From a virus, in IMG/VR virus record IMGVR_UViG_3300035685_000001, positions 1 through 64,000 of that record: DNA of 64,000 nt, one strand, 5' to 3'. Position numbers and translations under genes: made by a program. Of the stretch, positions 36,689 through 62,533 are shown piece by piece (the first letter of the stretch is position 1; each line of letters starts with the position of its first letter). The notes under the pieces were generated by a model. That model was given only the letters and a program-made list of their open reading frames with translations, was not told where the DNA came from and did not search any database.

Positions 36689-36696
36689 GAGTCATG

Positions 36697-36726
36697 TTGA
36701 CGTGGTGCGGTAAACAAGTCTATGAT
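36697..36726 (+). promoter_or_regulatory. Candidate internal promoter for dam-thyX-dcd
   Basis: TTGACG, 18-nt spacer, TATGAT, in the 60-nt gap after the primase-helicase stop. Confidence 0.4.
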
Positions 36727-36747
36727 GGGTGCATCGACTTTATCTGG

Positions 36748-37572
36748 ATGTCAATGAGCTTAAAGCCATTCTTGAAATGGGCAGGAGGCAAGACACAGTT
36801 ATTGCCTGTACTGTCTGAACATGTCCCTTTTAAATACGGTTGTTACTATGAGCCGTTCTTAGGTGGCGGTGCTTTATTGTTTCACTTGTTGCCTCCAAAA
36901 GCGTTTGTATCAGACATCAATGCAGAGTTGATTAATTGCTATCAATGCCTTCAAAGTCTCCCTGAAAAGGTAACAAAGCATTTAGACTCATTTCCAATCA
37001 ATCAAGACTTCTTTCATGAGTTGCGAGCAGCCGATAGAGCAGAAGATTGGCAAAACAGAGAGTCTAGTTGGAAAGCAGCAAGAGTAATTTACCTCAATAA
37101 AACCTGTTATAACGGGTTATATCGAGTCAATAGAAAAGGTGAAGTAAATAGTCCTTGGGGATACTATGACAATCCTACTATTTATGAACCTGAGAGCCTT
37201 GACGGAATTAGAAACTACTTATCGGATTTTGGAAAACGGCTAGTTGCAGAAGACTTTCAAATAGCCCTAACTAAGCCAGTAGCGGGGGATTTCGTCTATC
37301 TAGACCCACCCTATGACATCCTGAGTGATACGGCAAGCTTTACGGGCTATTCAGCAGGAGGCTTTCATAAAGAACATCATGTCATTCTTAAAAAGCTTGT
37401 AGATGAACTCACTGCAAAAGATGTTAAAGTCCTTCAGAGTAATGCTGATACGCCGTTTATTCGCAACCTCTACAAGGATTACAAGGTCATAGAGGTACAA
37501 GCAAAGCGAAGCATTAACAGCAAGGGTAACAAGAGAGGTAATGTTACAGAATTACTCATTAAGAATTACTAA
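36748..37572 (+). CDS. dam: N6-adenine DNA methyltransferase (Dam-like)
   Basis: PFLKWAGGK, FLGGGA (SAM motif I) and DPPY (motif IV). The track start at 36682 overlaps the promoter, so ATG 36748 or 36754 is preferred. Confidence 0.8.
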   Translation: MSMSLKPFLKWAGGKTQLLPVLSEHVPFKYGCYYEPFLGGGALLFHLLPPKAFVSDINAELINCYQCLQSLPEKVTKHLDSFPINQDFFHELRAADRAEDWQNRESSWKAARVIYLNKTCYNGLYRVNRKGEVNSPWGYYDNPTIYEPESLDGIRNYLSDFGKRLVAEDFQIALTKPVAGDFVYLDPPYDILSDTASFTGYSAGGFHKEHHVILKKLVDELTAKDVKVLQSNADTPFIRNLYKDYKVIEVQAKRSINSKGNKRGNVTELLIKNY

Positions 37573-37574
37573 AC

Positions 37575-38294
37575 ATGGACAAATATTTTAGAGTAGAGTT
37601 ATTGCGAGCAACCCCTAACCCACAGCAATTATGCTGGCTCGCAATGCATCAAGATTATAGTCCTCATGCTGTAGTAGACAGACTTGATAAATGTCCTAGT
37701 GAAGTTCAAGCAGGTGAGTACATCGTTAAGCATTGCCTAAAGCATCTCCACTGGGGCGTTCTCGAACACAGTCAAATTACATTTAACTGTGTCGGTTTTC
37801 CTCATCATGTTGTGATGCACTTAAGAACTCACAGGGTGGGAATTTCTTTTGACGTACAGAGTTTACGTTACTGCTCAGAGCATATTCTAGACGTTGCAAA
37901 TCATAAGCGATCGCCTGAAGAGCTGTTCTTTATCAGACCTCCAGGACATTACACCGATAGAGACGGTGCCAAATATGACTTCACAGAGGAAGACTATACA
38001 GAGCGGTTAGGTATCCTATACAACCTTGCAAAAGAGTATGCAAGGGCAATCGCTAAAGGACAATCGGAGGAACACGCTAGAGAGTTGATGGCAATGAGTA
38101 TTAGACAGAATTTTGTCTTGAGTGTAAATGCTCGTAGTCTGTTGCATCTTCTAGACGTAAGAAGTACAAAAGATGTCCAGCTAGAAACTCAGCAATTCTC
38201 GCAGCTGCTTTTCAAGCAGTTTGCTATTTGGATGCCTCAAGTGGCTGAGTGGTATGCAGAAAACCGATTAGGTAAAAACAAATTAGCCCCCTAA
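37575..38294 (+). CDS. thyX: Flavin-dependent thymidylate synthase
   Basis: LRTHRVGISFDVQSLRY matches the ThyX RHR...S..RY signature region. Size is typical. Confidence 0.8.
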   Translation: MDKYFRVELLRATPNPQQLCWLAMHQDYSPHAVVDRLDKCPSEVQAGEYIVKHCLKHLHWGVLEHSQITFNCVGFPHHVVMHLRTHRVGISFDVQSLRYCSEHILDVANHKRSPEELFFIRPPGHYTDRDGAKYDFTEEDYTERLGILYNLAKEYARAIAKGQSEEHARELMAMSIRQNFVLSVNARSLLHLLDVRSTKDVQLETQQFSQLLFKQFAIWMPQVAEWYAENRLGKNKLAP

Positions 38295-38299
38295 CTATC

Positions 38300-38881
38300 A
38301 TGCTTAAAAATGACAGATGGATACATTTAGCAGCAAGTAATGGACTTATCACACCATTTGAGCCTAATCAAGTTCGTAAAGTAGACGATCGCAAAGTCAT
38401 CAGTTACGGATGCTCATCTTCGGGTTATGACATCTGCCTATCGCCTAAAGACTTCAGGATATTCAAACACGTACCTGGTAGCATAGTAGACCCCAAGAAC
38501 TTCTCTGAGAAGCATCTAGAACAAGCCACACTGCATTCTGATGAAACAGGGGAGTATTTTGTCATCCCTGGCAATACTTACGGTCTTGGAGTCGCCTTAG
38601 AGCGACTGAAGATACCTAGGAATATCACAGTGTTGTGTATCGGCAAGAGTACTTATTGCAGAGTGGGTCTGATTGCTAATCTTTCTCCTGCTGAGCCTGG
38701 ATGGGAAGGTCACCTTACGTTAGAGTTTTCCAACTCAAGCAATGCAGACATCAAGCTTTATGCAAATGAGGGTGTAGTGCAGTTATTGTTTTTTGACTGC
38801 GAGCCGTGCATGATTTCCTACAGCGACAGAAAAGGGAAATATCAGGCTCAAGAGGAAAGTGTTACTTTAGCCAGAGTCTAG
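38300..38881 (+). CDS. dcd: dCTP deaminase
   Basis: MLKNDRWI...LITPFE...ISYGCSSSGYDICLS and the ~190 aa size are typical of Dcd. Confidence 0.8.
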   Translation: MLKNDRWIHLAASNGLITPFEPNQVRKVDDRKVISYGCSSSGYDICLSPKDFRIFKHVPGSIVDPKNFSEKHLEQATLHSDETGEYFVIPGNTYGLGVALERLKIPRNITVLCIGKSTYCRVGLIANLSPAEPGWEGHLTLEFSNSSNADIKLYANEGVVQLLFFDCEPCMISYSDRKGKYQAQEESVTLARV

Positions 38882-38938
38882 GGAATATAGCAAATAAGGT
38901 CTAAGATGGGGAGATGCTTGTGTCTCCCCTCTTGTTGT

Positions 38939-41900
38939 ATGTCTATAGACATTGCGTCAGTTTCTATTCCTACGGAGATTAATTTATCGGGATTTAATTC
39001 AGGACTTGCAGCGCTTGAGCGTACCAAAATAAAAAGCCTAGAGGTAGACGTAAAGCTCAACACACAGAGCTTAGAGCGTGACAGAAAGCAGTTAGAGGCA
39101 ACGTTAGCAAAGCCACTAACTCTGAACTTAGAGGTAGATGACACAGCACTACTGACACTTAGAAGACGATTACAGAAGCAAGCACCTTACAAAGTTAAAG
39201 TCACAACAGAAGTAGACACTAGAGGTGTTATTAACGCACGTCAGCAGATTAACAAGTCAATTGGCAATATCCCAGAAGTAAAAATCTGTGTTGACGACTC
39301 AGAGCTTTATGAACTGAACAAGCACATTGAGCTTAAGCGTACTCACGTCAAAGACATCAATAAGTGGATGGCAGCTAATCCTATTACTGTCCATGCGGAC
39401 ACCAGTAGGGTTGATGCTTTTGAAAAGCGCACCATAAAGGGCAAGAAAGTTAGAGTTGAAGTTGAGTATGATGACCCTGGCTATAAGTCAACTGCATTAG
39501 CCACTCATTCAGTTTCATCAACAAAGTCCACGTTGAATTTCACAAAGCCTCTAGAAGCTCAGACAAAGGCTCTTGATTCTGCAATCGACTCAGCAGCCGA
39601 CAAGATAGCCGATGCGCTTGAGAAAGGCTTTAAGAGCCAAAAGAAAGGACTCTTAGGAGAGATAGGTTCAGGCTTGCTACTTGGAGCAACCTTTAAGGGA
39701 GGCTCAGCCTTATTTGATAAAGCTACAGGTAAAGCCAAACAAACCGTTACTCAACAAAAAGAACAACGTCAAGCCTTTACTCAACTTAATTATAAAAGTC
39801 AAGTTGCTGTAACTAAAAAGCAGGTAGTTGTTCAAAATAAAGAAACTGATAAGTTACGCCAAGAGATGCTGCAAATGAATAACAGGGATGTTATTCAGCC
39901 TCTAGCAAAGAAAGCAGGTGTCAAAGCATCTACTAAAGTTCAAGCCGTAGAAGGCTTATTAAGCGGACAGTCTCCACAACAACTTAAAACTCAATTACCT
40001 TACATTGATAATATTCGTCAAGAGGCTGTTAAAACCTCTGAACAATTATCAAAGCTTACAGCAGTTCAGCTTAAAACTCAGTTATCAGATACTACTAAAC
40101 GACTTAGCACCAGTCTCAAAGGGATTAAAGGTACTGCCAATATTTCTGCACTGTCTGACCTTGGCAATCAAATAGAAAAAGAATATCAAGCCGTTATTGC
40201 CACATTATCAGAAGCTACTGAAGAGGATGCAAAAAACATTTTACAGTCGGCAAAGCTTCAGATAGCTAAGATTCGCAAAGCAACCTCAACAGAAGCTCAG
40301 AAAGTTTCTTTAGAAAGCATTCAAAATCAAGGCAATCAACAAGGGCAACAGCAGTTTTTAAGACGCGCCAAGCAACCTAAGTTTAATGCACTCCAACAGC
40401 GTCGCATTAAAGAAATGCAATACAACGCTCGCATTGTAGAAGAGCGAGCAGAGCAAATCTATCAGACTCTTCCAGACCTTCCTAAAGACACTAAACGTAT
40501 TGCACTTGTGTCAGGTGGTTTTGCAAGTAAGCATGGCAAGTCAAGCCATTCTGTTGCTGAAAGAATGAAGCCATTCTTAGGAGAAGGTACTCATGTACAG
40601 CCTGTAGAAAATCCTGATACGGATTGGGGTGACTATGATGCAACAGTTGAGAAAGACCCTATCTCATGGGCAAAAAATGCTGTCAAAGTAGTTGCAAAGC
40701 ATAATTTAGGCAAAGGTTACAAAGAAGACTCTATACAAGCTGCTGCCTACGCTAAAGCTTACGCCAAGAAAGCTAAAGAACAAGGCTTAAACATTCCAAA
40801 CATTGAAGGTTATGGCTACTCAGCAGGAGGTTTTGTAATGCAAGAAGCGGCTGAGTTAAGCCGTGAAACTAGAACACCATTTAAAGGTGTAGGAATAGGT
40901 ACACCTCACTATGGAATCTCCAACACTGCCTCTCAAGAAGATTACATTAGCGTATTAGGTGGACAAGACCCGCTCTCTAAACTTCAACCTGTCAAGTCAC
41001 CTAACCTTAGAACTTATGCTAAAGCAGGTCGAAAACACCTTTTAGAAGAGTACACAAACAATCCGGATGTGCAGCGTGACATTTTCTCCCACATGGGGAG
41101 AGAAGCCCCTTTTGCACTCGGTCAGGACTTTGAAGAGAACATGATGTCGGCAATGAATGCCGCACAAGAAAGTCTTAGCATTAACCCTCGAATGCGTCCT
41201 ACTCTTGCTGCAAGTGGAGCAATTGACCCTGTATTAGACGAACTCACAAAGCATCGTGAAACAATAGCCGATCAAATAGACAACATCCCCTTGGAAATTT
41301 TAGAAGACGTTAAAGCAGCGGATGAAGTATTACAAGGTCTTCAGAATCAACTAATCAAAGGATTTGGACTAAAGGGTAAATCTGTTGCCCCTTTAGCGCA
41401 AGCTGGAAAGAAAGTTATAAAAACACCTGCTCAGCAAATTGTAGGGAATGGAGATAAAGAGCAGCAAATACTTAAAAATTATCATGCCATTCTTAAAGAA
41501 ATGGCAGACGTAGCAGGGGTTACGGTAAATCAAACTCAAGTCCCAAAATTAACTGTAGACCCTGCTAAGCTTAAACGTTTAGATGCAAATGCTTATTACG
41601 AGTCTGGTTCAAAAAATGAAATAACAATTCAACCACGATTGGCAGAATTGCTTGCTCTTCCTACAGAAGAATTAAAAAACTATAGTAAAGAACTAACTTC
41701 TTTGACTCATGAGTTATTTCATAGTATTGATTTAGCTTTTGGCGAAAAGACCATAGGAGGGTTGGCAAGAGGAACAGATCAGATTGAAACTCCCTTATCT
41801 CCATCTGTCACTGTTAACGGTGACAGAATGGCAAGGATAGCAATGGCTGACACTAAGCGAAGTCAGCCACGAGCAAACAATGATTATTTAAAGACCATAG

Positions 41901-44900
41901 GGCAGTTAGAGCAAAGAGCCTATAGCTTCCAGGCATCAACAGGAAAGATTCTAGAACGTGTTTCTGAAAACCCCCAACAAGTTGATCAAATACGAACAGC
42001 AACAGAACGCGCTGAACAATTAGGTAAAGACATTGGCAAGGTTATAAAGCCACCAAATCTGCAACCAATAATTAACAATGGCTTACGGGCTTATAAGGGG
42101 CTTACAGCAAAACAAGCAAAACAATTAGAACAGAATTATAAAAATTTCTTTAAAGAGGTAGCAACCTTATCAGACTTTGACTTAGGTGGTCGCAATCTTC
42201 CTGGATTAAAGGTAGATGAAAAGCTATTAGAACAACAGTCAGCAGATGCTCTTTATGATATTGCAAATAATCAAATAATTATTTCTAAAGAACTTCAGCA
42301 GGCACTAGCTGAAACCCCCGAAGGATTGCAACAATACGCTGAACAGATGGCGGCATTGGTGCATGAGGCTCGCCATGCTATGCAGTTTGACCTTGGCACA
42401 TTGTCAATGGAAGACTTGCAGCTAGGTCTAAAACCAGGTACTAATCTAAAAGCCTTTAATGAGACTTCCTCTGATGCTCAAAAAGCAGCACTTGAATCTG
42501 TAGACTTTGCTGCTCAACAAAATCCAGCAATGAGCGATCGTGCCAAAGCTGTACTTGGAACAGTTGAAGCTGATGCTTCAGACTTTGAACAGAACACACA
42601 AGGTATCTTAGAAAACCTTGCTGCAACAGAAGTCTTTGAGAATGCTTTCGGTGACTTCAAGCAGGAAAAAGCAGCATTCAGAAAAGCCTTAGACGATATC
42701 GAAGCCTACCTAAGCGAAGGTTTAAACCATCTAACAAAAGTTATTACCGACTTTGGTAAGAACTTAGCAGCAAAAGCTCAAAGTATTATCAGTGGATTTT
42801 TAACAGGCAACAGAACGTCAAAAGAATCCTCAAGAGCTTATGGCGGCTTCCAATACGTCAGACGTGGAAAAGGCACTCCTACTCAGTTATCTAACGATAT
42901 ACCCGATCCTTGGGAACAAGAATCTGAAGCGGAATACAGGCGAGCAACACCAGTGCAAGGCACTACACCTCAACTCCCAAGGCTTGACCCTAGAGGCTTA
43001 GGACAGCGCGTAAGAGTTCGCATAAGAAAACCTATTCAACAGACTATTAAGGGTACTCAGCAAGTCACAGAGAAGGCAGTAGAGAGCTTCAATAATCGTC
43101 TAGCAGATTACGTAGAAGGCAATTATAAGGAAGTCCTTAAAGAAGTATCAAGTCTAGCTGGTGCTAGCTTTGATGAAAACAGCTTACCAGAACTAACAGT
43201 CAATGAATCTGCATTAGCTAAAGCTGGCAAAGAAGCTCTTTACGATGCAGAGAAGAATCAAATTATTATTTCTCGACAAATGCGAGAAATGCTTAAGGCT
43301 AACCCCAGAGCATTAGCACAATATTCCAAAAAACTCAAGCCATTAATTGAAGCAGCAAGAGAGTCTATTGAAGGCACTACTGAAGCGGAAGCTCAAGAAT
43401 TTAGCAAACGCTCAGGAGAAGTATTAGCACGTGTAAGCACCAGAGCTAAAGGCAAGCGTTCTAACTACGCCACTCCCATTAAAGGTATCGCTGAGAACCT
43501 AGAGGCTTCAATAGATGCGTTGGCACTTGGCGCGCAAGAGTCAGAAAAACTTAAGAAACGCGCAAGGCTTTTTCTTAATAGTCTCAAGCAAGCTGCTAAA
43601 ACTCCCGACAACATGAATCCTGTGGTACCCGCTACAGAAAAAGCTAAGCCTTACCGCTTAGGAGCTGGAAAGTCTATGCAAAGCATGAGGCGAGCCTACA
43701 GGGAGATACGGAACCCCACACCTTTCTTGCCAGAAGGCAACACCGCTCAAAGGGTATTTACACGTGTTGTTCCTAGACCTGTCAGAAAAGCAGTTCAACA
43801 ACAAGCTGAAAGAGCAAAACAGGTATCAGGTGTTGACCTAAGCAATCCTACAAGCGCATTTCAAGCACTAGACAAAGCTGTTCAATCTGTCAATAAGCGC
43901 TTTAAAGTTCCTATTGAACTCTATGCAAAACTTAACATCAAGGGAATGGCTGATGTTGTTCAAGATTTGCAAAAGATAGTAGGCAAGGAACTAGATAAGC
44001 TAGAAAAGAAGGCTCAGACATTACCTTACTTTGGAGACTTGGCAGGCAAAGCTGTAGGAAGCTTAAAGTCTTTTGCAATGGCGGGTTCTGGAGCTGGAAT
44101 AGTTGCCTTAAGATTCTTGAGTGTACTTGGTCGTTTTACCGGACTTGCCACACTTGCCGCTCAGATTCAGTTAGTAGCAGTTCAATTTGATGGACTTAAG
44201 AAAAGCTTCATTCAAGTCTCAAACGAAGCTAACCGAGGTGCTGAAACGTTTGATAGAGTAATGCAATCTGCCAGTGAGCTAGGAGTAGATAAAGCTACAG
44301 CCGCTCAAGGTGCAACTCAAATCTTTGGTAATGTTAACCCTAAGATGGGTAGCCGAATGGCTGAGCAGACAAACAGGGCTGCTCAAGAAGCGTCGTTAAT
44401 CTACTCAAGTACTCCTCAGCAATCAGAGCAGATATTCTCAGCATTTGCCAACTTGACTGATGAATCTACCTTAAGTATGGGTAGCTTTCAACAAATGATG
44501 AAAGCCATCCCAGGTAGTCTTGATACGGCTGCTCGCTCTATGGGTATGACCAATGCTGAGTTTCAAAACTTCATTCAGAGCAACAGCATACTTGTAGATG
44601 ATTTCTTGCCTAGATTCATTCAACAAATGAATGTTGACAATCAACCTAAGATCGCTGGTGCAATGGATACTCTCTCCACAGCAACAAATCGTTATAACAA
44701 CGCACTAGTAGATGTGCAGTTAGAAATAGGTAAGACAATCACACCAATTGAGAAGTTAAGAGTACAGTCAGCGGCTTGGATGGCTGAAAATCCATTGAAG
44801 TACATGGCTGCTGTCTTTGCCAAGTGGTCTACTTCAATGGCTGTATTGTCACTCGTTAAGTTTATGGTGGCAAGTAAGAATGTTTTGGCTACTGTAATCC

Positions 44901-47900
44901 CTATAGTTGCAAAGCTACCATTGTTCCAAGCTGGCATACTTGCGCTTACTGTTGCATTTAAGGCTGTTTTGCCAATTATTGCAAAGATGAGCTTAGAGTT
45001 TATCTTGTTCCAACTTCTAATTGATGCTGTATTTGCAGCATTTAAGGCTGGAAGTAATGCGGGTGGACAATTCAATACATGGGCAGAAGAATCAGTAGAT
45101 AGGGTTAATAATTTAGCCCTAGCATTTGATAAAGCTAAGGAATCTGCTGAGGGGATGGGTAAATCCTTGCCTACTGATGAAACTGAGTTAAAGAGTCAAG
45201 GCAGTCGCTTTGAAGATAGCATTATTGGTTCTATCTTTGGAAAGAAAAACATGAGATGGGCAGAAAACCAGATGGATAAAGGTCTACAAAAAATAGATCC
45301 TACCTGGAAATCTTACGCCCAAAAAGAAATGTATGACAAAGCTGAGGCGGTACAAACTCTAAGCCAATCAGGAGGTGCGATATCACAGCGCGTTCTCGAT
45401 ATGCGTATTGGTAAGGACAATTCCCTCAAAGAATTTACCGCCATTGAGAAAAAGTTAGAAGACATCAGAATGCAGCGTAGAGCATTAGCTTCTACAGACT
45501 CAGGTGATACAGAAGGATTACGCAAGCTTAGAGAACAAGAACGCGAACTGCTGAAGACTCGTGATGTAACAGCCGCTCCTATTCAGCAATTACAAAGCGA
45601 TGTTGCTGCACAAATTAAGGTGTATGAGGATGCTTTAGCGAAGATTGATGAAGAAGCTTCTCAGGATTCATGGACTCAAGAAGAGTATGACAGAGCAACA
45701 CAAACTCTTAAAATGAGTCTTTCTGAGGCTGAGAAAGAGCAAAAATATCTCAATAGCCAGATTAAAGATAGTACTACAGCATTACTTGCCCTACAGCGTC
45801 AATTTGCTTCTCTAAATGCTCAGTTAGCCGATAATGCAACGACACTTCAAAAGCAATACAACGAGACATTAAAGGGCATCTTTGCAAATGATTCTTTAAG
45901 TTCTGCACAAAAAGGCTTTAAACAGCAATCAGCAGAGCAGGATATGCTTGCTCAAAAGTTACAAGCTAACAAGCGTACTGCCCTAGAGATGCGTGAAAGT
46001 CTAGCCGCTCAAGGCGGTGAAGACATATTGACAAATTACAAAGTAGACGTTAGCACTACTGATGCTCAAGGCTTTAATTTGCTGGCTCAAAAGGCAGAAG
46101 CGCAAGGTAATGCTAAAGAACAAGAAGTCTTTACCCAATACGCTCGCATTAAAGAGCTAGAGTTAGAAACTTCTGAAATGGAGGCGCAAGCCATCCAAAG
46201 ACAATCAGAAGCTCAACAACAACTTAAAGACCTTAACAAACAAGTAGAAGAGTACTACAGAGGCATTGCCAGACAAGCTGCTGAAAGTGAGATTCAACTC
46301 GCTAAGCAAGTATCAGAAATCCAAACTCAACAGCATACCAATACGATCAATGCTGCTCTGTTGGGAGCAAATGACAATATTATCAGTCAGTTTGTAGGTG
46401 GCATTTTAGACGCTGTAACTCAGATAGCAAGTGCTGCTGATGGTTCGTTTGATGCTCAAAGTCAAATACTACAAGCTCAAAATGCCTTTGAAGATACTTT
46501 CAGAAGTGGTGAAGAGTTACGCAAGCAGTTGCCAGCATTAGAACTTAAGGGTTCTGACCTGCCTACCATCCCAGTAGAAATAGACGTTAATTCCGTTGGG
46601 GCTAATGATGACATCCAAAAACTAGGTGATGCAATTGGAGCATCTGTAGATGAGACTGATGATTTAGCTGCTGCTACTGCTGGTGTGAATGCCATGTTTG
46701 CAGAGTCAAGCGGATTAGTAACGCAGACATCAGACGATGTTAGCTACTTGCAGAGTGGGCTAGAGGGTGTAGCAGGGGCAATAGATACGGGTGCTATGGC
46801 ATCAGATAGCCTCAATCAATCAGTAGGCTCTACAACCGATTCAGCCTCTTATCTCCAAAGTCAGATAGATATCAATACGATGGCTATTGATGGCAGTAAT
46901 GCTGCTATGCAAGGAGTAGGAGCAAGCATAGATGCAAATACTCAGAAAACCGGATTAACGGCTGAGCAGTCAGCTAAGTGGTGGGCAGAATTAGGCACTG
47001 TAGAGAAGATAACCATATCAGTGCAAGCTGTCTTTACTGCCATTGGTCAAGGGATTATGGGTGTAATCTCAAATACTGTTGATTGGTTCAAGACGTTTGC
47101 AAATAATATTCCAATTCTTAATACTATTGGTCAAACTCTAAGTAGTTGGGGGCAAAGTATTGCCAATAGTGGTATCGGTCAAGCCGTAGGGGGAGCCGTA
47201 CAGAGTGCGGGTGATGCAATAGGGCATCAATGGGATCGCTTTACTAATTGGGCGCAAGGTGGTGGCAAAGTTACAGAACGTTATCGCACTGGTACTCTTG
47301 CTGCTCAAGAGTATGGTGCATCTAGAGATGGGGGTAGCAGGAGACACGCAGGACAAGATTTAGATGTTAGTGGCAACCAAGAAGCTCAATCTTTTATCGG
47401 TGGAAAAATCACTAAAGTAGGATATGACCAAGGTGGTTATGGTCATTATGTAGATGTTTATAATCCTACTTTGAAGGTGGTTGAACGCATTGCAGAAGTT
47501 GCACAAGTATTAGTAAAAGTGGGTCAAGAAATAAAACCAGGTCAAGCAATAGGCAAAGGTGAAACAAATACAGGTGTATTTCACTACGAAATTAGAACAG
47601 ATGCTAATGCTCAAGGACAAGGTGGCTCTGGTCATACAGGAACAGTAGACCCTATAAAGTTTTATGAAAAGCTTGGCATTGTAGAGCGTCAAGGACAAAA
47701 CATTGTAATTAAAAAAGGAATGCAAGCGGGTCAAACTGTAACTCAACAAGAGCATCATTTAGGAGATGGTCATAATCATTATGGTGAAGAGGATGCTAGG
47801 AAAGCCAACCAGCAAGCAGCAGTAGCCACTTCTGAACAACTAGCGCAAGCTGGACGCAATGCAACAGCTAGACGTGGCGGGGCTAATGGTAATGCCGTAA

Positions 47901-50900
47901 TAACAAACGCTGGTGACTACACAAAACGCTCCAAAGAAGACAACATTCAAACAATTGTTAATGAAGCAATTCGTTTAGGAGTCACAGACAAAGCTCAGAT
48001 TAGCTATATTGTTGCAACAGCACTACATGAGTCAGGCAACTTCAAGTATTTTGAAGAACAAGGACCCGATAGCCGCTTTGCTCATTATGGGGGGGGTGCC
48101 AGATACAAAGGGCGCGGGATGGTACAACTGACTCACAAGCAAAACTACCAGAAGCAAGGTGAGCGTCTAGGTTTAGATTTGGTTAATAATCCTGAATTAA
48201 TTCGTGATGCTAATGTTGCTGCAAATATATTGGTTCACGGGATGATAACAGGAGGTTTTACAGGGCGCAGATTAGATCAATATGTAGGCAATGGCAAAAA
48301 CGACATTAATAATGCAAGACGCACTGTAAACGGTTACGTGCAAGCTCAGGTGAATCAAGTTAATAGTAAATACAACAGCATTGCCCCAAATATTGACCAA
48401 TATATTGCAAGAGCCGGACAAGGTGGAGCGGCTCCTACAGTTTCAGCTCCTCAACAGGCTGCCTATACTCCTGTTGCAAAACCTGAAGTATGGGCACCTG
48501 AAAGCTTAAGTCAAGTTGGCAATAATCGCATTACTCAAACTCAAAACTCAGCCGCTCAACAACGTGACGCACAACAAGCAGCCGCAGCCCAACAGACTTA
48601 CGCAAGAGCAGAAAGTGAAACTATTAGCGGTCTTCAAAAATCCCAACAGACTTTAATCCAAGTACAAAAACAACTAAGACAAGCTGGCTATGAGTCTAGA
48701 GACATTGGTGAAGATATCACCAATATGAACCTAGAAAATCTTGGCCCCCTTACCCTGCCTCAGCAACGAGAGAAAGCATTAGCTGATCAGCGTAGACAAT
48801 ATCGGGATCAAGGCGAAAAAGTTAACGAACTCATCATTGACAGAGAGAATCGTAAGCAAGCTGCTCAAGCTATCTTAGACTTACCTGAAGGTATAATTAC
48901 ACCAGCAGTCAGAGAAAAATTTGACAAGATTCTGGCAATGCCAATCAGTGAAGACCTAAAAGAGCGTCTTCGTACCGAACTTACTACAGGTTCACTTGGT
49001 GAAGGACTCAAGAATACTCTACAACAATCCGTCACTCAAGCCGATCAAGAATTGGCAGTATTGCGTAAAGCTCAAGCTGACCTCCAAAAAGGTGAACAAG
49101 AATCACTAAAGGCTGCTGAGGAAAAATGGGCATTTGAGATTAAAGCCCGTGAGCAAGCCGCTAAGTTTGAACAAGAAAGCTTAAATATCAGTACTCTACA
49201 GGCTCGTTTAGAACAACTCAAGGGGCAAGCTGACAGAGAAGGGGCAACTAGTGAAGCTCTAAAGCAGATTCCAGCAATGGAAGCGCTTATAGCCCTCCGT
49301 CAGCAACAGCTAGACTACGATAAGCAGATTCAGGAAATAGAAGAGAAAGTCAGAGCTAAGACTGGCATCAATGAAGAAGAGGCTAAGGCACAAATAGCGA
49401 GCCTTAAAGAGCGTAAAGCTATAGTTGACCAGACTGTTAAGGAAAACCAAGCTTATCAGGAGTTGGTCAACACAAGGGCATTGGATGCTCGCAACAGAGA
49501 AGCAAGCCTGGAACAAGCTCGTCAAGAGTTAGCTGTCAGCAAACAACAAATAGAGGCACTTAAGGCGCTACCAGAATCAGACGCTCGCCGCAATGATATC
49601 CCTCTGCTTGAGTATCAAGTAGAGTTACAAGAGTTGCAGCTTAAGCTACAAGAGGATATTGCCGCTGTTAATGATGCAGTCTTTAAAGGCGATCGCACCA
49701 AGGCGGAAGGCGATAAAAAGATAGCTGACCTTCAGAAGGAATACGAACTTAATCAGGCTAACCTAGGAGTCAGACTTAAACAGCAATCAGTAGAACAAGA
49801 ACTAGCCCAACAGCGAGCGGTCTTAGGCATTCGAGAACAGGAACTAGGCTTTGCAGAGCAGCTACTAGAGGCTCAAAGCAGAAGTATTGAACTAGGGCGT
49901 TCTACAGGCGATAAGTTAGGCGATCGGTATGCCCTACAGACTGAACAACAGAAGCTCAGTTTTGAAAAGCAAATTCTAGACGTTAAGGAATTGGGTTTAC
50001 AGTCTAATAAATCCGCTGAAGAAATTGCCGCAACAGAGGCTTTGCTAAGAAAGGTTAATGATATAACCCTGGACAACATTACTGCTGAGATGGAAAAAGC
50101 TTTTTCTGACAGAGCTTTTAACGTTAATCAACGCATTGGAGAAAGCAACAACGCAGTATTGAGCGCTCAGCAATCCTTGATGAGTACTTATGGATTTACT
50201 CAAGAGGCTAACCGACTTGGTAAAGAAATAGCTATTAATCAGCAAGTTCAAGATTTTACTAATGAATCAAGAAGTTTAGAAGAATTTATCAAAACTGAAT
50301 CAGTAGCAGCCGATAAAGCAGCCTTGCTACGAGACAGCCTAAAGAGTGTTAACGAGATTAAGTTCCGTGAGATAGAGGCTCAATTTAATCCGCTGAAAGG
50401 TCTGATTGATAGCTCAGTAGGGGCGCTTAAGGGAGCATTCAAGAGTCTGATTAAGGATGGCAAAGTAGACTTTGACTCGTTCTTTGATGGCATTCTGGAC
50501 AGTATTGCTGAATTCCTTAGCAATATGCTTGTAGAAGAGTTGATGGGGTTCTTAACTCCTGGTGGGGATAAGAAAAAAGGTGGTGAAATATTCCCAAACG
50601 CTACAGCAGACCCTAACAGCACTGACCCATTCAACGGTGTTGCAGACCCACTGGGATTAATCACGGGGCAGAGGGACAGCATCTTTGGTGGAAGTGAAGC
50701 TACTAGTTTATTAGGCACTAGTGCAATGCAACCGATGTTTGTCAGCGTTACAAATGCTAATCAATTTGGCTTTGGAGCAGGAGCAGCAAACAACATTGTG
50801 CCATTCTCTAGTAATAGTGTTGTTGGTAGCGGTTTAGGTGACTTTGGTGCGAGCCTATTTGGTGGAAAGACTGATTTAATTAGCCCTCTAACTAGTAGTT

Positions 50901-51565
50901 TTGGTGATTTAAGTAGCTTCATGACTCCTACTTTCTCAGGCATCACTGCCCAGAACCCGCTAGCGGTCAACGTGACACAAGCTAAGCCTGATTTGTTCAG
51001 TAGTATTCTAGGTGGACTTGGCGGGGGGGCAGGGGGCATTGGAGGGGCTGTAGGTGGCATAGCCTCAGCATTAGGCGGTGGAGGTGGCTTTGGTGGAATT
51101 ATTAGCGCAATACTGCCTATATTTGGTAGCTTATTTGGTTTTGCAAAAGGCGGCGTAATTGGCACTGGTAGAGGCGAAAAAGATGACCAGCTTATCTTGG
51201 CTCAAAGAGGCGAAGGTATTCTTACTCATGAGGGCATGAAAGCTATCGGCGGGGCTGCTGTATTAAATAGTCTTAATCATGCTAAGAAGTATCGAGTACC
51301 TAAGTTTGCAATGGGTGGACAGATAGGCGGTGAATATGGTGGTAGAGGAAGTGCTGATAGAGTGAGTGAAGGAAGGGAAGAAAGACGTAACGAGACTCTA
51401 AAAGTAGAAAGTGAAGTTATTAATAATGTCGAGTACGTGACTTTTGCACAAGCTCAGCAAATGGCACAAAAAGCCCGCCAAATGGGCGCTTCAGACGGTG
51501 CAAAGTATGTTTCTGAAAAAATGCAAAACTCGCCTTCTTATCGCAATAGGCATGGTATTAGATAA
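38939..51565 (+). CDS. Giant tape-measure-like multi-enzyme virion protein (about 4200 aa)
   Basis: Single 12.6-kb ORF. Contains GYSAGG serine-hydrolase motif (40814-40828), HELFH (41708-41722), HEARH (42362-42376), hydrophobic helices (~44790-45060), long coiled coils, M23 peptidase HAGQDL...HYEIR (~47345-47596), GH19-like HESG...YKGRGMVQLTHKQNY (~48026-48160) and a Gly-rich C-terminus. I prefer ATG 38939 because 38906-38938 forms a hairpin. Confidence 0.7.
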   Translation: MSIDIASVSIPTEINLSGFNSGLAALERTKIKSLEVDVKLNTQSLERDRKQLEATLAKPLTLNLEVDDTALLTLRRRLQKQAPYKVKVTTEVDTRGVINARQQINKSIGNIPEVKICVDDSELYELNKHIELKRTHVKDINKWMAANPITVHADTSRVDAFEKRTIKGKKVRVEVEYDDPGYKSTALATHSVSSTKSTLNFTKPLEAQTKALDSAIDSAADKIADALEKGFKSQKKGLLGEIGSGLLLGATFKGGSALFDKATGKAKQTVTQQKEQRQAFTQLNYKSQVAVTKKQVVVQNKETDKLRQEMLQMNNRDVIQPLAKKAGVKASTKVQAVEGLLSGQSPQQLKTQLPYIDNIRQEAVKTSEQLSKLTAVQLKTQLSDTTKRLSTSLKGIKGTANISALSDLGNQIEKEYQAVIATLSEATEEDAKNILQSAKLQIAKIRKATSTEAQKVSLESIQNQGNQQGQQQFLRRAKQPKFNALQQRRIKEMQYNARIVEERAEQIYQTLPDLPKDTKRIALVSGGFASKHGKSSHSVAERMKPFLGEGTHVQPVENPDTDWGDYDATVEKDPISWAKNAVKVVAKHNLGKGYKEDSIQAAAYAKAYAKKAKEQGLNIPNIEGYGYSAGGFVMQEAAELSRETRTPFKGVGIGTPHYGISNTASQEDYISVLGGQDPLSKLQPVKSPNLRTYAKAGRKHLLEEYTNNPDVQRDIFSHMGREAPFALGQDFEENMMSAMNAAQESLSINPRMRPTLAASGAIDPVLDELTKHRETIADQIDNIPLEILEDVKAADEVLQGLQNQLIKGFGLKGKSVAPLAQAGKKVIKTPAQQIVGNGDKEQQILKNYHAILKEMADVAGVTVNQTQVPKLTVDPAKLKRLDANAYYESGSKNEITIQPRLAELLALPTEELKNYSKELTSLTHELFHSIDLAFGEKTIGGLARGTDQIETPLSPSVTVNGDRMARIAMADTKRSQPRANNDYLKTIGQLEQRAYSFQASTGKILERVSENPQQVDQIRTATERAEQLGKDIGKVIKPPNLQPIINNGLRAYKGLTAKQAKQLEQNYKNFFKEVATLSDFDLGGRNLPGLKVDEKLLEQQSADALYDIANNQIIISKELQQALAETPEGLQQYAEQMAALVHEARHAMQFDLGTLSMEDLQLGLKPGTNLKAFNETSSDAQKAALESVDFAAQQNPAMSDRAKAVLGTVEADASDFEQNTQGILENLAATEVFENAFGDFKQEKAAFRKALDDIEAYLSEGLNHLTKVITDFGKNLAAKAQSIISGFLTGNRTSKESSRAYGGFQYVRRGKGTPTQLSNDIPDPWEQESEAEYRRATPVQGTTPQLPRLDPRGLGQRVRVRIRKPIQQTIKGTQQVTEKAVESFNNRLADYVEGNYKEVLKEVSSLAGASFDENSLPELTVNESALAKAGKEALYDAEKNQIIISRQMREMLKANPRALAQYSKKLKPLIEAARESIEGTTEAEAQEFSKRSGEVLARVSTRAKGKRSNYATPIKGIAENLEASIDALALGAQESEKLKKRARLFLNSLKQAAKTPDNMNPVVPATEKAKPYRLGAGKSMQSMRRAYREIRNPTPFLPEGNTAQRVFTRVVPRPVRKAVQQQAERAKQVSGVDLSNPTSAFQALDKAVQSVNKRFKVPIELYAKLNIKGMADVVQDLQKIVGKELDKLEKKAQTLPYFGDLAGKAVGSLKSFAMAGSGAGIVALRFLSVLGRFTGLATLAAQIQLVAVQFDGLKKSFIQVSNEANRGAETFDRVMQSASELGVDKATAAQGATQIFGNVNPKMGSRMAEQTNRAAQEASLIYSSTPQQSEQIFSAFANLTDESTLSMGSFQQMMKAIPGSLDTAARSMGMTNAEFQNFIQSNSILVDDFLPRFIQQMNVDNQPKIAGAMDTLSTATNRYNNALVDVQLEIGKTITPIEKLRVQSAAWMAENPLKYMAAVFAKWSTSMAVLSLVKFMVASKNVLATVIPIVAKLPLFQAGILALTVAFKAVLPIIAKMSLEFILFQLLIDAVFAAFKAGSNAGGQFNTWAEESVDRVNNLALAFDKAKESAEGMGKSLPTDETELKSQGSRFEDSIIGSIFGKKNMRWAENQMDKGLQKIDPTWKSYAQKEMYDKAEAVQTLSQSGGAISQRVLDMRIGKDNSLKEFTAIEKKLEDIRMQRRALASTDSGDTEGLRKLREQERELLKTRDVTAAPIQQLQSDVAAQIKVYEDALAKIDEEASQDSWTQEEYDRATQTLKMSLSEAEKEQKYLNSQIKDSTTALLALQRQFASLNAQLADNATTLQKQYNETLKGIFANDSLSSAQKGFKQQSAEQDMLAQKLQANKRTALEMRESLAAQGGEDILTNYKVDVSTTDAQGFNLLAQKAEAQGNAKEQEVFTQYARIKELELETSEMEAQAIQRQSEAQQQLKDLNKQVEEYYRGIARQAAESEIQLAKQVSEIQTQQHTNTINAALLGANDNIISQFVGGILDAVTQIASAADGSFDAQSQILQAQNAFEDTFRSGEELRKQLPALELKGSDLPTIPVEIDVNSVGANDDIQKLGDAIGASVDETDDLAAATAGVNAMFAESSGLVTQTSDDVSYLQSGLEGVAGAIDTGAMASDSLNQSVGSTTDSASYLQSQIDINTMAIDGSNAAMQGVGASIDANTQKTGLTAEQSAKWWAELGTVEKITISVQAVFTAIGQGIMGVISNTVDWFKTFANNIPILNTIGQTLSSWGQSIANSGIGQAVGGAVQSAGDAIGHQWDRFTNWAQGGGKVTERYRTGTLAAQEYGASRDGGSRRHAGQDLDVSGNQEAQSFIGGKITKVGYDQGGYGHYVDVYNPTLKVVERIAEVAQVLVKVGQEIKPGQAIGKGETNTGVFHYEIRTDANAQGQGGSGHTGTVDPIKFYEKLGIVERQGQNIVIKKGMQAGQTVTQQEHHLGDGHNHYGEEDARKANQQAAVATSEQLAQAGRNATARRGGANGNAVITNAGDYTKRSKEDNIQTIVNEAIRLGVTDKAQISYIVATALHESGNFKYFEEQGPDSRFAHYGGGARYKGRGMVQLTHKQNYQKQGERLGLDLVNNPELIRDANVAANILVHGMITGGFTGRRLDQYVGNGKNDINNARRTVNGYVQAQVNQVNSKYNSIAPNIDQYIARAGQGGAAPTVSAPQQAAYTPVAKPEVWAPESLSQVGNNRITQTQNSAAQQRDAQQAAAAQQTYARAESETISGLQKSQQTLIQVQKQLRQAGYESRDIGEDITNMNLENLGPLTLPQQREKALADQRRQYRDQGEKVNELIIDRENRKQAAQAILDLPEGIITPAVREKFDKILAMPISEDLKERLRTELTTGSLGEGLKNTLQQSVTQADQELAVLRKAQADLQKGEQESLKAAEEKWAFEIKAREQAAKFEQESLNISTLQARLEQLKGQADREGATSEALKQIPAMEALIALRQQQLDYDKQIQEIEEKVRAKTGINEEEAKAQIASLKERKAIVDQTVKENQAYQELVNTRALDARNREASLEQARQELAVSKQQIEALKALPESDARRNDIPLLEYQVELQELQLKLQEDIAAVNDAVFKGDRTKAEGDKKIADLQKEYELNQANLGVRLKQQSVEQELAQQRAVLGIREQELGFAEQLLEAQSRSIELGRSTGDKLGDRYALQTEQQKLSFEKQILDVKELGLQSNKSAEEIAATEALLRKVNDITLDNITAEMEKAFSDRAFNVNQRIGESNNAVLSAQQSLMSTYGFTQEANRLGKEIAINQQVQDFTNESRSLEEFIKTESVAADKAALLRDSLKSVNEIKFREIEAQFNPLKGLIDSSVGALKGAFKSLIKDGKVDFDSFFDGILDSIAEFLSNMLVEELMGFLTPGGDKKKGGEIFPNATADPNSTDPFNGVADPLGLITGQRDSIFGGSEATSLLGTSAMQPMFVSVTNANQFGFGAGAANNIVPFSSNSVVGSGLGDFGASLFGGKTDLISPLTSSFGDLSSFMTPTFSGITAQNPLAVNVTQAKPDLFSSILGGLGGGAGGIGGAVGGIASALGGGGGFGGIISAILPIFGSLFGFAKGGVIGTGRGEKDDQLILAQRGEGILTHEGMKAIGGAAVLNSLNHAKKYRVPKFAMGGQIGGEYGGRGSADRVSEGREERRNETLKVESEVINNVEYVTFAQAQQMAQKARQMGASDGAKYVSEKMQNSPSYRNRHGIR

Positions 51566-51707
51566 ACTTTATATATTGCACTAGACAGGCGGTGTCTGAG
51601 GCAGTGCTTGCTAAGAGGAAGCATAGGGTTTACTGTTGAGTCGTACCTATGCCCAATTGGAGTAAGACTGATACACAAAATACTCAAACATTGTGTATGT
51701 ACCTCAA

Positions 51708-51732
51708 CTCGGTTCGACTCCGAGATAGTGCC
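51708..51732 (+). other. tRNA-like T-arm plus acceptor 3' strand fragment
   Basis: CTCGG-TTCGACT-CCGAG (5-bp stem with a canonical 7-nt T-loop), followed by ATAGTGC-C. No canonical D or anticodon arms lie within 75-90 nt upstream. Confidence 0.35.
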
Positions 51733-51750
51733 TAAGCTCAAGTTTAATTT

Positions 51751-52155
51751 ATGGCTATCCTTTCTTTTCCTGCAATCCCACCTAACTACGTTAGAAGCGT
51801 CCAATTTTCTGATTACAACACCTTAATCCGCGAATTCGAGAGCGGTGGAGAAATTCGCCGTAGCGCTCAACATACTGGTGTAGGTACAACCCTTAGCCTT
51901 TCCTACCTGCTTATGTCAGAAGATGATACGGCTGTCTTTATGAATTTTTGGAAAGCATCTGGAGGGACTTGGCTTAGCTTTACGTTGCCCTCTGCAATAA
52001 TCAAGCATCCTGACAATATAAAAATGGGGTTGGCTAATTTTGACTCAACTACCTATTTCCGTTTTACTGAAGGACTTAATTTTAAGACTGATTGGGCAAC
52101 AAAAAAGCGTGGTTTATACTCATTTGACGTAAATATACAGTCGGTGGTTAGCTAA
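51751..52155 (+). CDS. Minor tail protein (lambda gpM-like)
   Basis: Lies immediately after the tape-measure-like gene. FP..P...V.F.D.....E.ESGGEIRR...L.L.Y.......FW...GG.W.SF.LP resembles the gpM-family layout. Confidence 0.4.
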   Translation: MAILSFPAIPPNYVRSVQFSDYNTLIREFESGGEIRRSAQHTGVGTTLSLSYLLMSEDDTAVFMNFWKASGGTWLSFTLPSAIIKHPDNIKMGLANFDSTTYFRFTEGLNFKTDWATKKRGLYSFDVNIQSVVS

Positions 52156-55087: not shown

Positions 55088-55496
55088 TCTGATACTGAGC
55101 AGCAGTCATAATCCCAGGCATATTGCCAAAGCTCTCACCTAAACTTAAAGGCTTTTTACGTTGTTCTTTGCGTTCTGTCTCTTTAGCGCCCGAAGCCTTT
55201 CTTAATGAGCCTACATATTGCTTAACATCTTTTTCCTTGCCACCAAAAGCCATTCCAACAGCTTGATAGAGTGAGAGCGTATCTCTAGCCTTCTGCTGGC
55301 TAAATGCAACTACAAGCTGTTGGAATTCCCAATGAGGGAGTTCTAGTGCTTCGGAACGACTAAGCCCGTAGACGGCTCTTAGAAGTGGTAATGAGTCCTT
55401 TACGTTGACGCAGTACTCGTAAGCTGCTTCACGTTGTTCTCTAACGGTAAGTTGTCTACTGTTGCCTCCACCGTAAAAGTCTCCTCTTCCAAAGGG
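55053..55496 (-). CDS. gpT-like -1 frame extension, expressed as a G-T fusion
   Basis: The -1 frame relative to 55400..56059 is open from the stop at 55509-55511 down to 55053. The slippery heptamer lies at 55490-55496. Confidence 0.55.
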   Translation of the reverse strand, partial: PFGRGDFYGGGNSRQLTVREQREAAYEYCVNVKDSLPLLRAVYGLSRSEALELPHWEFQQLVVAFSQQKARDTLSLYQAVGMAFGGKEKDVKQYVGSLRKASGAKETERKEQRKKPLSLGESFGNMPGIMTAAQYQTMVAEAQKNQG

Positions 55497-56059
55497 TCTT
55501 GTTCTTCGTCATCCTCTGAGGCTTCTAATGCTTTTTCCTCTTCAGGGTCTGTAGCTTTACGGACGTAAGAGGCTAAGTCGTTAATGAACTTAGCAATGGG
55601 GATTTGCTTGCGTAAGTTCCGTCTTGTTAGTTCGGCTTCAATCAAGCTCATGAGTTCACCTGGTTCAAGCTCTGCAAGTGCCTCAAGCCATTGGCAATTA
55701 AGAGGCATTAGCTCCTCTGACTTTTCAGCAAACTTGCGACTAAGTACAGGTATTTCTTCTCTTTCTTCCTCACTAATCTCTGGAAGGTCACTAAGGTAGT
55801 TCAATCGATTCAGCAGAGCTTGATACTGTCTTGCCGCTACCATCTGTTCAACCTGAATGGCAACGTAGCGTAAGTGATGTTTTTCTGTGATGTGGTCAGC
55901 TTTCCACCACTCAATAATCTTTTCTCCTACCTTGTAAGTGGCAACAGGTTCAACGTCGCCTAAAACTTCATCAATAAGGTCTTTAACGGGCTTTAACTTA
56001 AGAGGACTGTCAGCCATAAAAATAACAATGAGTAAACAATATAGGGGCAAGTATAACAC
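55400..56059 (-). CDS. Tail assembly chaperone (gpG-like)
   Basis: Lies directly downstream of the tail tube gene and has an acidic C-terminus. An overlapping -1 frame stays open to 55053. Confidence 0.6.
   Translation of the reverse strand: MLYLPLYCLLIVIFMADSPLKLKPVKDLIDEVLGDVEPVATYKVGEKIIEWWKADHITEKHHLRYVAIQVEQMVAARQYQALLNRLNYLSDLPEISEEEREEIPVLSRKFAEKSEELMPLNCQWLEALAELEPGELMSLIEAELTRRNLRKQIPIAKFINDLASYVRKATDPEEEKALEASEDDEEQDPLEEETFTVEATVDNLPLENNVKQLTSTAST
55490..55496 (-). other. -1 programmed ribosomal frameshift slippery site C CCU UUG
   Basis: The minus-strand sequence gaC CCT TTG is in X XXY YYZ register in the gpG frame, just after the -1 frame opens. Confidence 0.5.
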
Positions 56060-56090
56060 TTTACCCCTAGAGTTTTTGTTGCAACAAAAG

Positions 56091-56654: not shown

Positions 56655-56745
56655 TTTGTTTAATTCTCATGGGTTACAATTACGACATCAACACTCATTG
56701 ATATTTGCAGTCTATCTTTTCTCCACTTTAGATAGGCTGCTTTTC

Positions 56746-59281: not shown

Positions 59282-59285
59282 AATT

Positions 59286-60272: not shown

Positions 60273-60288
60273 TAATTTAGTCCTTCAA

Positions 60289-61095: not shown

Positions 61096-61109
61096 TTTAA
61101 CCTCGTTAT

Positions 61110-62441: not shown

Positions 62442-62533
62442 TGCTAGGCTTTATGTAGCGAATAAATGCAAGCCTAGCATAGAGTTTATTGGTGTGACAC
62501 TTTTCAGAACGCCTAACAGTAAAATACTTTTGT

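Follow-up and report, generated by a model that had tools for sequence, protein, structure and literature searches.

A single phage gene encodes a giant tape measure protein with predicted lipase-like, zincin-like and cell-wall hydrolase modules

Introduction

Tail tape measure proteins (TMPs) are usually seen as rulers that carry at most a cell-wall hydrolase. T5 pb2, the TMP of mycobacteriophage TM4, and many annotated TMPs contain one or two muralytic domains in or near the C-terminal half, together with hydrophobic segments that cross the envelope. To our knowledge, TMPs such as T5 pb2 and that of TM4 comprise ~600–2,000 amino acids (aa), and none has an enzyme cassette N-terminal to its core. 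Here we describe a giant TMP gene in a stretch of viral DNA of 64,000 nucleotides (nt), which is referred to as the window (positions 1 to 64,000 of IMG/VR record IMGVR_UViG_3300035685_000001). The gene is located on the plus strand at 38939..51565 and encodes 4,208 aa (4,219 aa if counted from an ATG at 38906). Its product combines an alpha/beta hydrolase (ABH) module and three zincin-like (Z) modules with a Peptidase M23 domain and a GH19 domain, giving six enzyme-type modules in one chain.

A giant TMP of 5,002 aa, gp96, has been described for Thermus phage P23-45; it is found full-length in virions, and its authors state that it defines the ~800-nm tail (PMC10770324, Nat Commun 2024). It resembles the window protein in being a giant TMP with an enzyme part at the N-terminus. 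In gp96, the N-terminal ~1,200–1,540 aa form a functional enzyme that is carried in the virion, and the later part of the chain has a membrane segment and a metallopeptidase domain. Relatives lack the N-terminal enzyme, which therefore behaves as an add-on (PMC10770324). However, the cargo of P23-45 is a two-barrel RNA polymerase acting on phage DNA, whereas that of the window protein is a lipase-like hydrolase with zincins, unrelated in sequence. The window protein, unlike gp96, also has two muralytic domains, M23 and GH19.

Aphanizomenon phage vB_AphaS-CL131 infects a filamentous cyanobacterium and encodes three adjacent proteins, gp047 (330 aa, one ABH module), gp048 (1,811 aa, three ABH modules) and gp049 (a 2,131-aa TMP). 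All three were found in virions by liquid chromatography-tandem mass spectrometry, gp048 with 105 peptides and 54.6% coverage (CL131 paper, supplementary table), and the tail is 361 nm long (CL131 paper). As in the window, the ABH modules precede the TMP core; in CL131 they belong to virion proteins encoded directly upstream of the TMP. In contrast to the window, there are three separate genes and no zincin was detected; single-sequence phmmer with the M23 and GH19 segments of the window protein gave no match in gp049. The TMP annotated in Cylindrospermopsis raciborskii virus CrV-01T (gp064, 4,416 aa) is similar in size to the window protein, shares its N-terminal motif and has its core ~2,000 aa into the chain. 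However, no ABH or Z module was found in gp064, single-sequence phmmer with the M23 and GH19 segments gave no match, and its N-terminal region of 2,000 aa is unrelated. The TMP of Maribacter phage Colly_1 has a GH19-like segment, as the window protein does.

Other systems share parts of the concept. Polyvalent proteins are giant single polypeptides, delivered together with the DNA, in which enzymatic domains of several unrelated kinds are combined; the zincin-like metallopeptidase (MPTase) domain is their commonest module, often occurs in several copies, and has been suggested to act in autoprocessing (Iyer et al. 2017, PMC5512222). The window protein is similar in that ABH, three zincin modules, M23 and GH19 are present in one phage chain. 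Its carrier, however, is a TMP, a term that is absent from PMC5512222 (0 occurrences), and Z is not among the curated MPTase families. The partner domains of polyvalent proteins (ArdC-N, ART, SNF2, MTase, ParB-like and LPDs) were not found in Pfam, NCBIfam and PHROG scans of the window protein. Sle1-type TMP-related effectors of actinobacterial contractile injection systems (PMC13277306, PMC11126660) and spike-fused effectors of type VI secretion systems (T6SS) also follow the concept of an exchangeable carrier, in the tube lumen or at the tip, that takes functional domains into membranes, but they belong to non-viral machines, have other domains and lack a ruler function.

Giant TMPs, muralytic TMP domains, one TMP with an N-terminal enzyme (P23-45) and polyvalent virion proteins with zincin modules are already known. 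What is new is a sizeable family, so far known mostly from metagenomes, that places a lipase-like hydrolase and a zincin, each from an undescribed family, N-terminal to a TMP core, either by fusion or in adjacent genes. Among the papers searched, none contained both "tape measure protein" and "lipase domain".

Results

Overall architecture

On sequence evidence, the protein is confirmed as a tail TMP, the identity proposed in a preliminary description of the window. Residues are numbered throughout from the ATG at 38906. The canonical TMP core is located at 44177..44728 (+). Pfam TMP_3 (PF20155) matched aa 1758–1941 with 44.4 bits (cut-off 41) when this part was scanned as a separate segment, and NCBIfam TIGR02675 ("tape_meas_nterm") matched aa 1836–1899 with 22.9 bits (cut-off 21.35). 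A tblastn search with the core gave matches in 27 phage records, and every listed match with an informative annotation was a tape measure protein. The curated N-terminal TMP domain starts ~1,750 residues into the chain; therefore, everything upstream of it is an extension.

Downstream of the core, a cluster of hydrophobic helices of about three membrane-spanning lengths was found at 44843..45058 (+; aa 1980–2051), in agreement with the ~44790–45060 of the preliminary description. Kyte-Doolittle windows exceeded 1.6 in this cluster and at aa 4061–4081. The next segment (45116..46585, +; aa 2071–2560) is poor in Pro and Gly, rich in Gln, Glu, Lys and Ala, and conserved in relatives; from its composition and homology it is presumed to be a helical ruler. 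Gly/Ser-rich repeats and a Trp-rich hydrophobic stretch (46586..47275, +; aa 2561–2790) lead to the M23 and GH19 domains. These are followed by a second long segment of helical type (48506..50395, +; aa 3201–3830), which close relatives conserve better than any other part. Helical or coiled-coil character was judged solely from the Pro/Gly-poor, Q/E/K/A-rich composition. The C-terminal region of the TMP (50396..51565, +) contains a Tape_meas_lam_C match at aa 3833–3877, which is below threshold, and a Gly-rich hydrophobic stretch at aa 4061–4081. The C-terminus of PHROG 339, "tail length tape measure protein", aligns with the final 160 aa (E 7e-4), and the Gly-rich tail noted earlier is present at this end.

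At the N-terminus, a repeated motif (VDDSxLxxLNKH...; 38939..39505, +) is common to CrV-01T gp064 and most family members. The motif in gp064 was the sole match of the N-terminal 1,700 aa among 50,697 phage records. Pfam scans of the unassigned aa 201–500, 1251–1399 and 1551–1750, and of the replacement regions of a syntenic relative (L021), found nothing. The five catalytic-type modules named in the preliminary description each proved to be a genuine conserved domain on the basis of family conservation, Pfam matches and models. The length, which had been called unusual, is rare but not unique: gp064 of CrV-01T (4,416 aa) and gp96 of P23-45 (5,002 aa) are longer, and one family member reaches 6,835 aa.

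Distribution and variation of the family

The family was found by an exhaustive phmmer comparison of aa 501–1500 with 1.84 billion cluster representatives. Word-indexed searches gave no match for these residues and only one fragment for the ABH profile. The phmmer family consists of 69 proteins, of which 40 exceed 2,000 aa; segments of the window protein and three hidden Markov models were mapped onto all 69. The dominant order begins with the N-terminal motif, continues with between one and four copies of ABH and then one or two of the zincin, and leads to the TMP core. The core is present in 40 of the 69 representatives, and in 27 of these 40 the last zincin ends a median of 89 aa (range 47–901) before it. 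Most of the 29 representatives without a TMP core consist of ABH repeats alone.

Genes of this kind occur on twelve viral contigs of IMG/VR; the contigs escaped an IMG/VR search with a single protein, which gave no match, and were recovered by a motif-focused alignment. One of them (L015) encodes a 2,207-aa ABH protein and, in a separate gene, the TMP core. Two scans of representative genomes in GTDB turned up no relative and hence no evidence of prophage copies in the sequenced species representatives.

Two relatives, L021 (TMP of 3,192 aa) and L022 (TMP of 4,236 aa), share with the window a synteny of deaminase, TMP and a 134-aa gene converging on the head module. The L021 TMP has the N-terminal motif and a core at aa 635, without ABH, Z, M23 and GH19. 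The distance from the core to the C-terminus is ~2,560 aa in L021, 2,469 aa in the window protein and ~2,570 aa in P0001, a homologue with 62% identity. Among the syntenic relatives, the N-terminal region ranges from ~600 to 1,750 aa, while the part from the core to the C-terminus stays within ~2,470–2,750 aa. The N-terminal region is variable and the remainder is fairly constant; therefore, the N-terminal region behaves as a cassette.

Integrity of the gene

The open frame at 38906..51565 (+) contains 4,219 codons and zero stops, and a 12.6-kb open frame in DNA of 42% GC should not arise by chance. The true start is almost certainly the ATG at 38939, which gives 4,208 aa. The homologue P0001 begins with MSIEVASV and L021 with MAIEIASV, and both align to the Met at 38939. 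This start was picked by two gene callers, and the gene calls on two public contigs begin there. A terminator-like hairpin (9 pairs) with a T-run at 38908–38929, between the dCTP deaminase gene and the TMP start, overlaps the ATG at 38906, and the latter was therefore rejected in favour of 38939.

The same sequence is present in NCBI assembly GCA_034690425.1 (contig JAXMMZ011226602.1, 121,788 bp), and the pieces fetched from it were 100% identical to the window. The two ends of this contig meet inside the TMP gene with an identical overlap of 141 nt (window 50365–50505). Such an overlap is the signature of a circularly closing assembly and implies a genome of ~121.6 kb. Because the ends meet within the TMP gene, the gene appears split in the NCBI record. 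A Logan contig from SRR11829740 (40,451 bp) covers the entire gene with 100% identity. Colinear homologues occur in other samples, with 4,177 aa (P0001), 4,236 aa (L022), 3,630 aa (L004) and ~3,300 aa (L006–L014). The gene is a single gene and not an assembly artefact. The uninterrupted open reading frame (ORF) of about 4200 aa in the preliminary description is thus retained, and the concatenation of several genes during assembly, which was named there as its possible refutation, is unsupported by the public assemblies. A megablast search of the gene against the 50,697 phage records gave zero matches.

Alpha/beta hydrolase module

The ABH module is located at 40478..41140 (+; aa ~525–745) and is predicted to be a minimal alpha/beta hydrolase of the lipase/esterase type. 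Its key residues are GGF (537–539), Ser639 within GYSAGG (40814–40831), Asp688 and His711. The GxSxG motif by itself is not significant, with 3 found against 1.7 expected, and was validated solely by family conservation. Residues 500–800 were unrecognised by any profile library, and the window copy had no Pfam match at E <= 0.1. Across 76 module copies (75 from homologues and that of the window), the pattern GGF...NPDA...G[YH]S[AG]GG...GTP.FG...D...H..Y is maintained. In an alignment of 26 sequences with 20–42% identity, the Gly, Ser and His show no variation, and at least 90% of the sequences have the Asp.

An AlphaFold2 model built from this alignment (pLDDT 89.4, pTM 0.87) contains six strands. 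The Ser follows the strand 111–116 at a strand-helix elbow, the Asp follows the strand 158–163, and the His follows the strand 179–182. In a Foldseek search with the model, all 13 matches at E <= 0.001 were alpha/beta hydrolases of the lipase, esterase or thioesterase kind, although the TM-scores were only 0.45–0.57. They included the A. fulgidus lipase (3e-05), APT1 and a carboxylesterase, and B. subtilis LipA and cutinases followed at E 1e-3 to 5e-3. The profile of the module, when compared with PDB sequences, matched a CE5 cutinase at best (E 2.5e-4), as well as lipases.

Members of the ABH family gave only weak Pfam matches (E >= 2.7e-5), to Thioesterase, Palm_thioest, PGAP1, Lipase_3, DUF676, Cutinase and Tle3, with each family matched by no more than 9 of 26 members. 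In the Pfam scan, the window copy did not belong to any existing curated family (Lipase_3, Cutinase, PGAP1, Tle and others). Judged from the alignment and the model, the module represents a new family within the alpha/beta-hydrolase clan with an apparently intact Ser-Asp-His triad. The serine hydrolase motif reported in the preliminary description can therefore be read as a nucleophile elbow in a predicted lipase/esterase-like fold.

The two ABH proteins of CL131, gp047 and gp048 (L003 21716–28140), were published as hypothetical, and ABH is their first domain assignment; gp048 matched only itself among the phage records. A free-standing "class 3 lipase", gp068, adjoins the dCTP deaminase of CrV-01T (L002 16569–17171). 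It was considered as an ABH relative and rejected, as no significant similarity was found. With gp068, a further lipase-type gene is present in a Nostocales siphophage that has a giant TMP.

Zincin-like modules

HExxH motifs occur at aa 935 and aa 1153, two against 0.02 expected from the composition. Both belong to copies of one module of ~170 aa, which is present three times; the third copy has lost the HExxH. The three copies were spotted by eye and confirmed by alignment, whereas self-BLASTP missed them. The two zincin motifs in the preliminary description are therefore real, but the number of modules is three. In the Z family, the two His and the Glu of the motif and a downstream Glu are invariant.

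The AlphaFold2 model of Z (pLDDT 96) contains a helix at the N-terminus, three strands and two further helices, one with the HExxH and a long one with the Glu. This secondary structure matches the description of the MPTase core (PMC5512222), and Z is therefore predicted to have a zincin-like MPTase core. Among curated families, only DUF6782 ("putative metallopeptidase") was matched, below its cut-off (21 bits against 27) and in 8 of 24 members. Nothing significant was found in the PDB, either by sequence (E >= 0.075) or by Foldseek (E >= 0.5). In BFVD, the nearest structures were two unnamed phage proteins, followed by Peptidase M48, IrrE-N-like and SprT-like proteins (probability 0.75–0.98, E >= 0.02). 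From sequence and model, the protein has two apparently intact zincin-like metallopeptidase modules and a degenerate one.

Cell-wall hydrolase modules

The Peptidase M23 domain (47342..47608, +; Pfam Peptidase_M23, PF01551, at aa 2813–2901) scored 31.0 bits against a cut-off of 28.7. When it was aligned to TagE (5j1l), the zinc ligands His2814, Asp2818 and His2893 were retained. However, both auxiliary catalytic histidines, the equivalents of LytM H260 and H291, are missing: Glu2864 takes the place of the His of "AHL", and HxH lacks its first His (TGVFHYE against TGPHLHYE). The same variant occurs in four diverged relatives, while family member P0020 keeps the canonical motifs. The pattern of conservation indicates a conserved non-canonical form of M23 rather than a decayed one, and its activity is uncertain. 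As a domain, the M23 peptidase of the preliminary description stands, with the reservation of the lost histidines. In the PDB, the M23 part is matched best by an "internal protein" of a phage.

The GH19 lysozyme/chitinase-type domain (47924..48454, +; aa 3007–3183), which had also been recognised earlier, has the signatures HESG...FEEQ and GRGMVQLT. Pfam Glyco_hydro_19 (PF00182) scored 29.4 bits against a cut-off of 25.5. The segment matched chitinases (~1e-06) and GH19 endolysins (4ok7 and 7r6s, 7e-05 to 3e-04) in the PDB, as well as PHROG 181 "endolysin" (E 1.8e-19). By inspection, the candidate catalytic glutamates, Glu3042 (HESG) and Glu3050/3051 (FEEQ), have the spacing expected for phage GH19 endolysins. 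A His/Asp-rich linker, QQEHHLGDGHNHYGEED, lies between the M23 and GH19 domains (window ~47768–47821; aa ~2955–2972), and P0001 has DHDHDGDGKPDH at this position. Its composition suggests that it may be a metal-binding site.

Genomic context

Directly upstream of the TMP gene are genes for a primase-helicase-like protein (assigned from its translation, with no profile match), a Dam methylase, ThyX and a dCTP deaminase. The neighbourhood is plainly that of a virus: the minus strand at 55.4–63.8 kb encodes the major capsid protein, neck proteins, a DUF2213 protease/scaffold and a tail tube-like protein. Within the plus-strand stretch 36682–52155, the TMP gene and the 134-aa gene that follows it are detached from the head-neck-tube module (55400–63775, -) and stand behind Dam, ThyX and dCTP deaminase. 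The detached, converging arrangement is kept in L021 and L022, and in L021 a dCMP deaminase is upstream of the TMP. The TMP gene is preceded by the dCTP deaminase gene instead of a chaperone gene; 3.8 kb away, the opposite strand carries the tube-like gene and an acidic ORF of 219 aa. No tRNAs were found in the window.

The 134-aa gene (51751..52155, +) follows the TMP gene in every close relative and possibly encodes a distal tail protein. The preliminary description had called it gpM-like and used it to support the tape measure identity, but BLASTP gave no alignment with lambda gpM at E <= 100 and there was no Pfam match. PHROG gave weak matches to "minor tail protein" (E 0.003) and "virion structural protein", and one homologue with 72% identity has a precomputed match to PF09343 (DUF2460). 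A distal-tail role is no more than plausible, and the gene adds little to the identification of the TMP.

Two paralogues of the tail tube-like protein, at 56091–56654 (-) and 20733–21383 (-), are 73% identical over 183 aa and lie 35 kb apart. The latter has a C-terminal extension of 30 aa and is followed by a 586-aa ORF (18972–20732). The label "tube-like" refers to the position of the gene only, as neither paralogue matches a PHROG or Pfam tail-tube family. Beside the head genes, a 319-aa ORF at 62816–63775 (-) has the end of Phage_lysozyme and a Tlde1-like (L,D-transpeptidase-type) domain, which suggest that it may be a second muralytic protein. Within the phage genome, a 467-aa sensor histidine kinase is encoded at 27742–29145 (+; precomputed Pfam CHASE3 and HATPase_c). 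Two small Cys/His-rich paralogues that look like HNH proteins (7150–7488 and 8629–9045, both +) flank an ORF that looks like LAGLIDADG (7485–8231, -), as judged from the translations only.

Discussion

We consider it probable, with some reserve, that the single gene encodes a TMP in two parts, a canonical TMP of ~2,470 aa and a variable N-terminal enzyme cassette. The integrity of the gene, the identities and folds of the domains, the conservation of catalytic residues, the domain order across the family and the occurrence of ABH-repeat proteins in CL131 virions are shown; we infer the catalysis, substrates, virion location, ejection order, processing and length-measuring part that are set out below. 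The C-terminal part (aa ~1750–4219) comprises the core, the membrane-type helices, the two helical segments, the M23 and GH19 pair and the Gly-rich C-terminus, and it would most likely set the tail. The N-terminal part of ~1,740 aa would place the conserved motif, one alpha/beta hydrolase and three zincin-like modules ahead of this core.

By analogy with other siphophages, the TMP would nucleate tail assembly and would be expelled on infection to span the envelope. The hydrophobic helices may help to build a trans-envelope channel, and the M23 and GH19 domains may make local openings in the cyanobacterial peptidoglycan. Carried in the virion together with the TMP, the cassette would exit the tail behind it. 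The hydrolase may attack an ester-linked component of the envelope or membrane. A zincin may cut the cassette from the TMP at the core junction, or it may cleave host proteins; release at the junction would fit the fixed position of the zincin just upstream of the TMP core.

The preliminary description had concluded that the protein requires either a very long tail or large regions that do not act as a ruler. This was the right question, and the comparisons with CL131 and L021 lean towards non-ruler regions. The predicted tail is ~310–420 nm if the cassette is not counted and ~630–710 nm if the whole chain is counted. In CL131, the 361-nm tail corresponds to 0.17 nm per residue for gp049 alone and to 0.085 nm for the sum of the three proteins. 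The length fits gp049 alone; therefore, the ABH proteins of CL131 are virion components that do not count towards tail length. A cassette outside the length measurement is favoured, though not strongly, over a ruler that includes it.

Several points weigh against a cassette that is not part of the ruler. The phage is known here from sequence and models alone. The conserved motif occupies the very N-terminus, which would suit a chain that forms a single structural unit throughout, and there is no chaperone gene before the TMP gene. Three folded domains of ~25 kDa per trimer would be too big for a tail lumen of ~4 nm; therefore, the cassette would have to be unfolded there or located elsewhere. 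In P23-45, the full 5,002 aa of gp96 fit the ~800-nm tail, so N-terminal enzymes can count towards length (PMC10770324).

The most serious alternative is a ruler made of all 4,208 aa. In this case, the enzyme modules would be unfolded or extended in the tube and would fold after ejection, and the tail would measure ~630–710 nm. Besides the full-length gp96, which is said to define its tail, the 795-nm tail of the Nostocales siphophage vB_NpeS-2AV2 speaks for such a ruler, and the motif at the extreme N-terminus could be a head-proximal anchor. A search for a giant TMP in vB_NpeS-2AV2 found none within 20–70 kb of the genome. However, the ABH proteins of CL131 are separate in the virion and its tail matches the 2,131-aa TMP alone, and the N-terminal regions of syntenic relatives vary from ~600 to 1,750 aa against the steady ~2,470–2,750 aa from core to C-terminus. 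We therefore regard a whole-chain ruler as possible but rather unlikely.

Another reading, in which the enzyme-like modules are catalytically dead relics kept on only as structural spacers, plugs or binding domains, is more doubtful still; the third Z copy has lost its HExxH and M23 its auxiliary histidines, and the catalytic residues of ABH and of the other two Z copies are kept. The protein might also be an internal ejection or pilot protein, as are T7 gp16 and the N4 virion RNA polymerase, which merely contains a TMP-like segment. Its gene is detached from the tube and chaperone genes and stands behind genes of nucleotide metabolism, the M23 part has a phage "internal protein" as its best PDB match, and the architecture is like that of polyvalent proteins. 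However, curated TMP profiles match above their cut-offs, the C-terminus is TMP-like, a conserved candidate distal-tail gene follows, the window has a tube-like gene (assigned by position) without a sheath gene, and the related isolates CL131 and CrV are siphoviruses; we consider a pilot protein very improbable. Least credible of all is an assembly chimera or a fusion of several genes through sequencing error, for which the end of the NCBI contig within the gene and the separate genes in CL131 and L015 might be cited, but which is contradicted by the 141 identical nt at the contig ends, by the independent Logan contig and by the colinear architecture of homologues of 4,177, 4,236, 3,630 and ~3,300 aa.

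With the two-part TMP as the preferred reading, the family offers a natural experiment on the setting of tail length, because fused, split and cassette-free relatives share a similar length from the core to the C-terminus. It also provides two uncharacterised enzyme families with clear catalytic residues, which are directly testable. Through it, domains can be assigned to two abundant virion proteins, so far "hypothetical", of CL131, a cyanophage relevant to blooms. Lipase-like and muralytic modules that are carried in the virion and face the thick envelope of filamentous cyanobacteria may be of use in bloom control or as lytic enzymes.

A more speculative possibility is that the TMPs of this clade are exchangeable delivery vehicles. 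The cassette of ~1,700 aa would then consist of injected effectors, from a lipase/esterase family and a zincin family not described before, that are threaded through the tail behind the TMP, freed by the zincin adjoining the core, and directed against host membranes, lipids or defence proteins; it could be swapped in fused or split form, independently of the control of tail length. If this is true, the family would be the siphophage counterpart of the spike-fused effectors of T6SS. Together with the fusion in P23-45, the family suggests that enzymes entering the host with the DNA or just ahead of it can generally dock at the N-terminus of a TMP.

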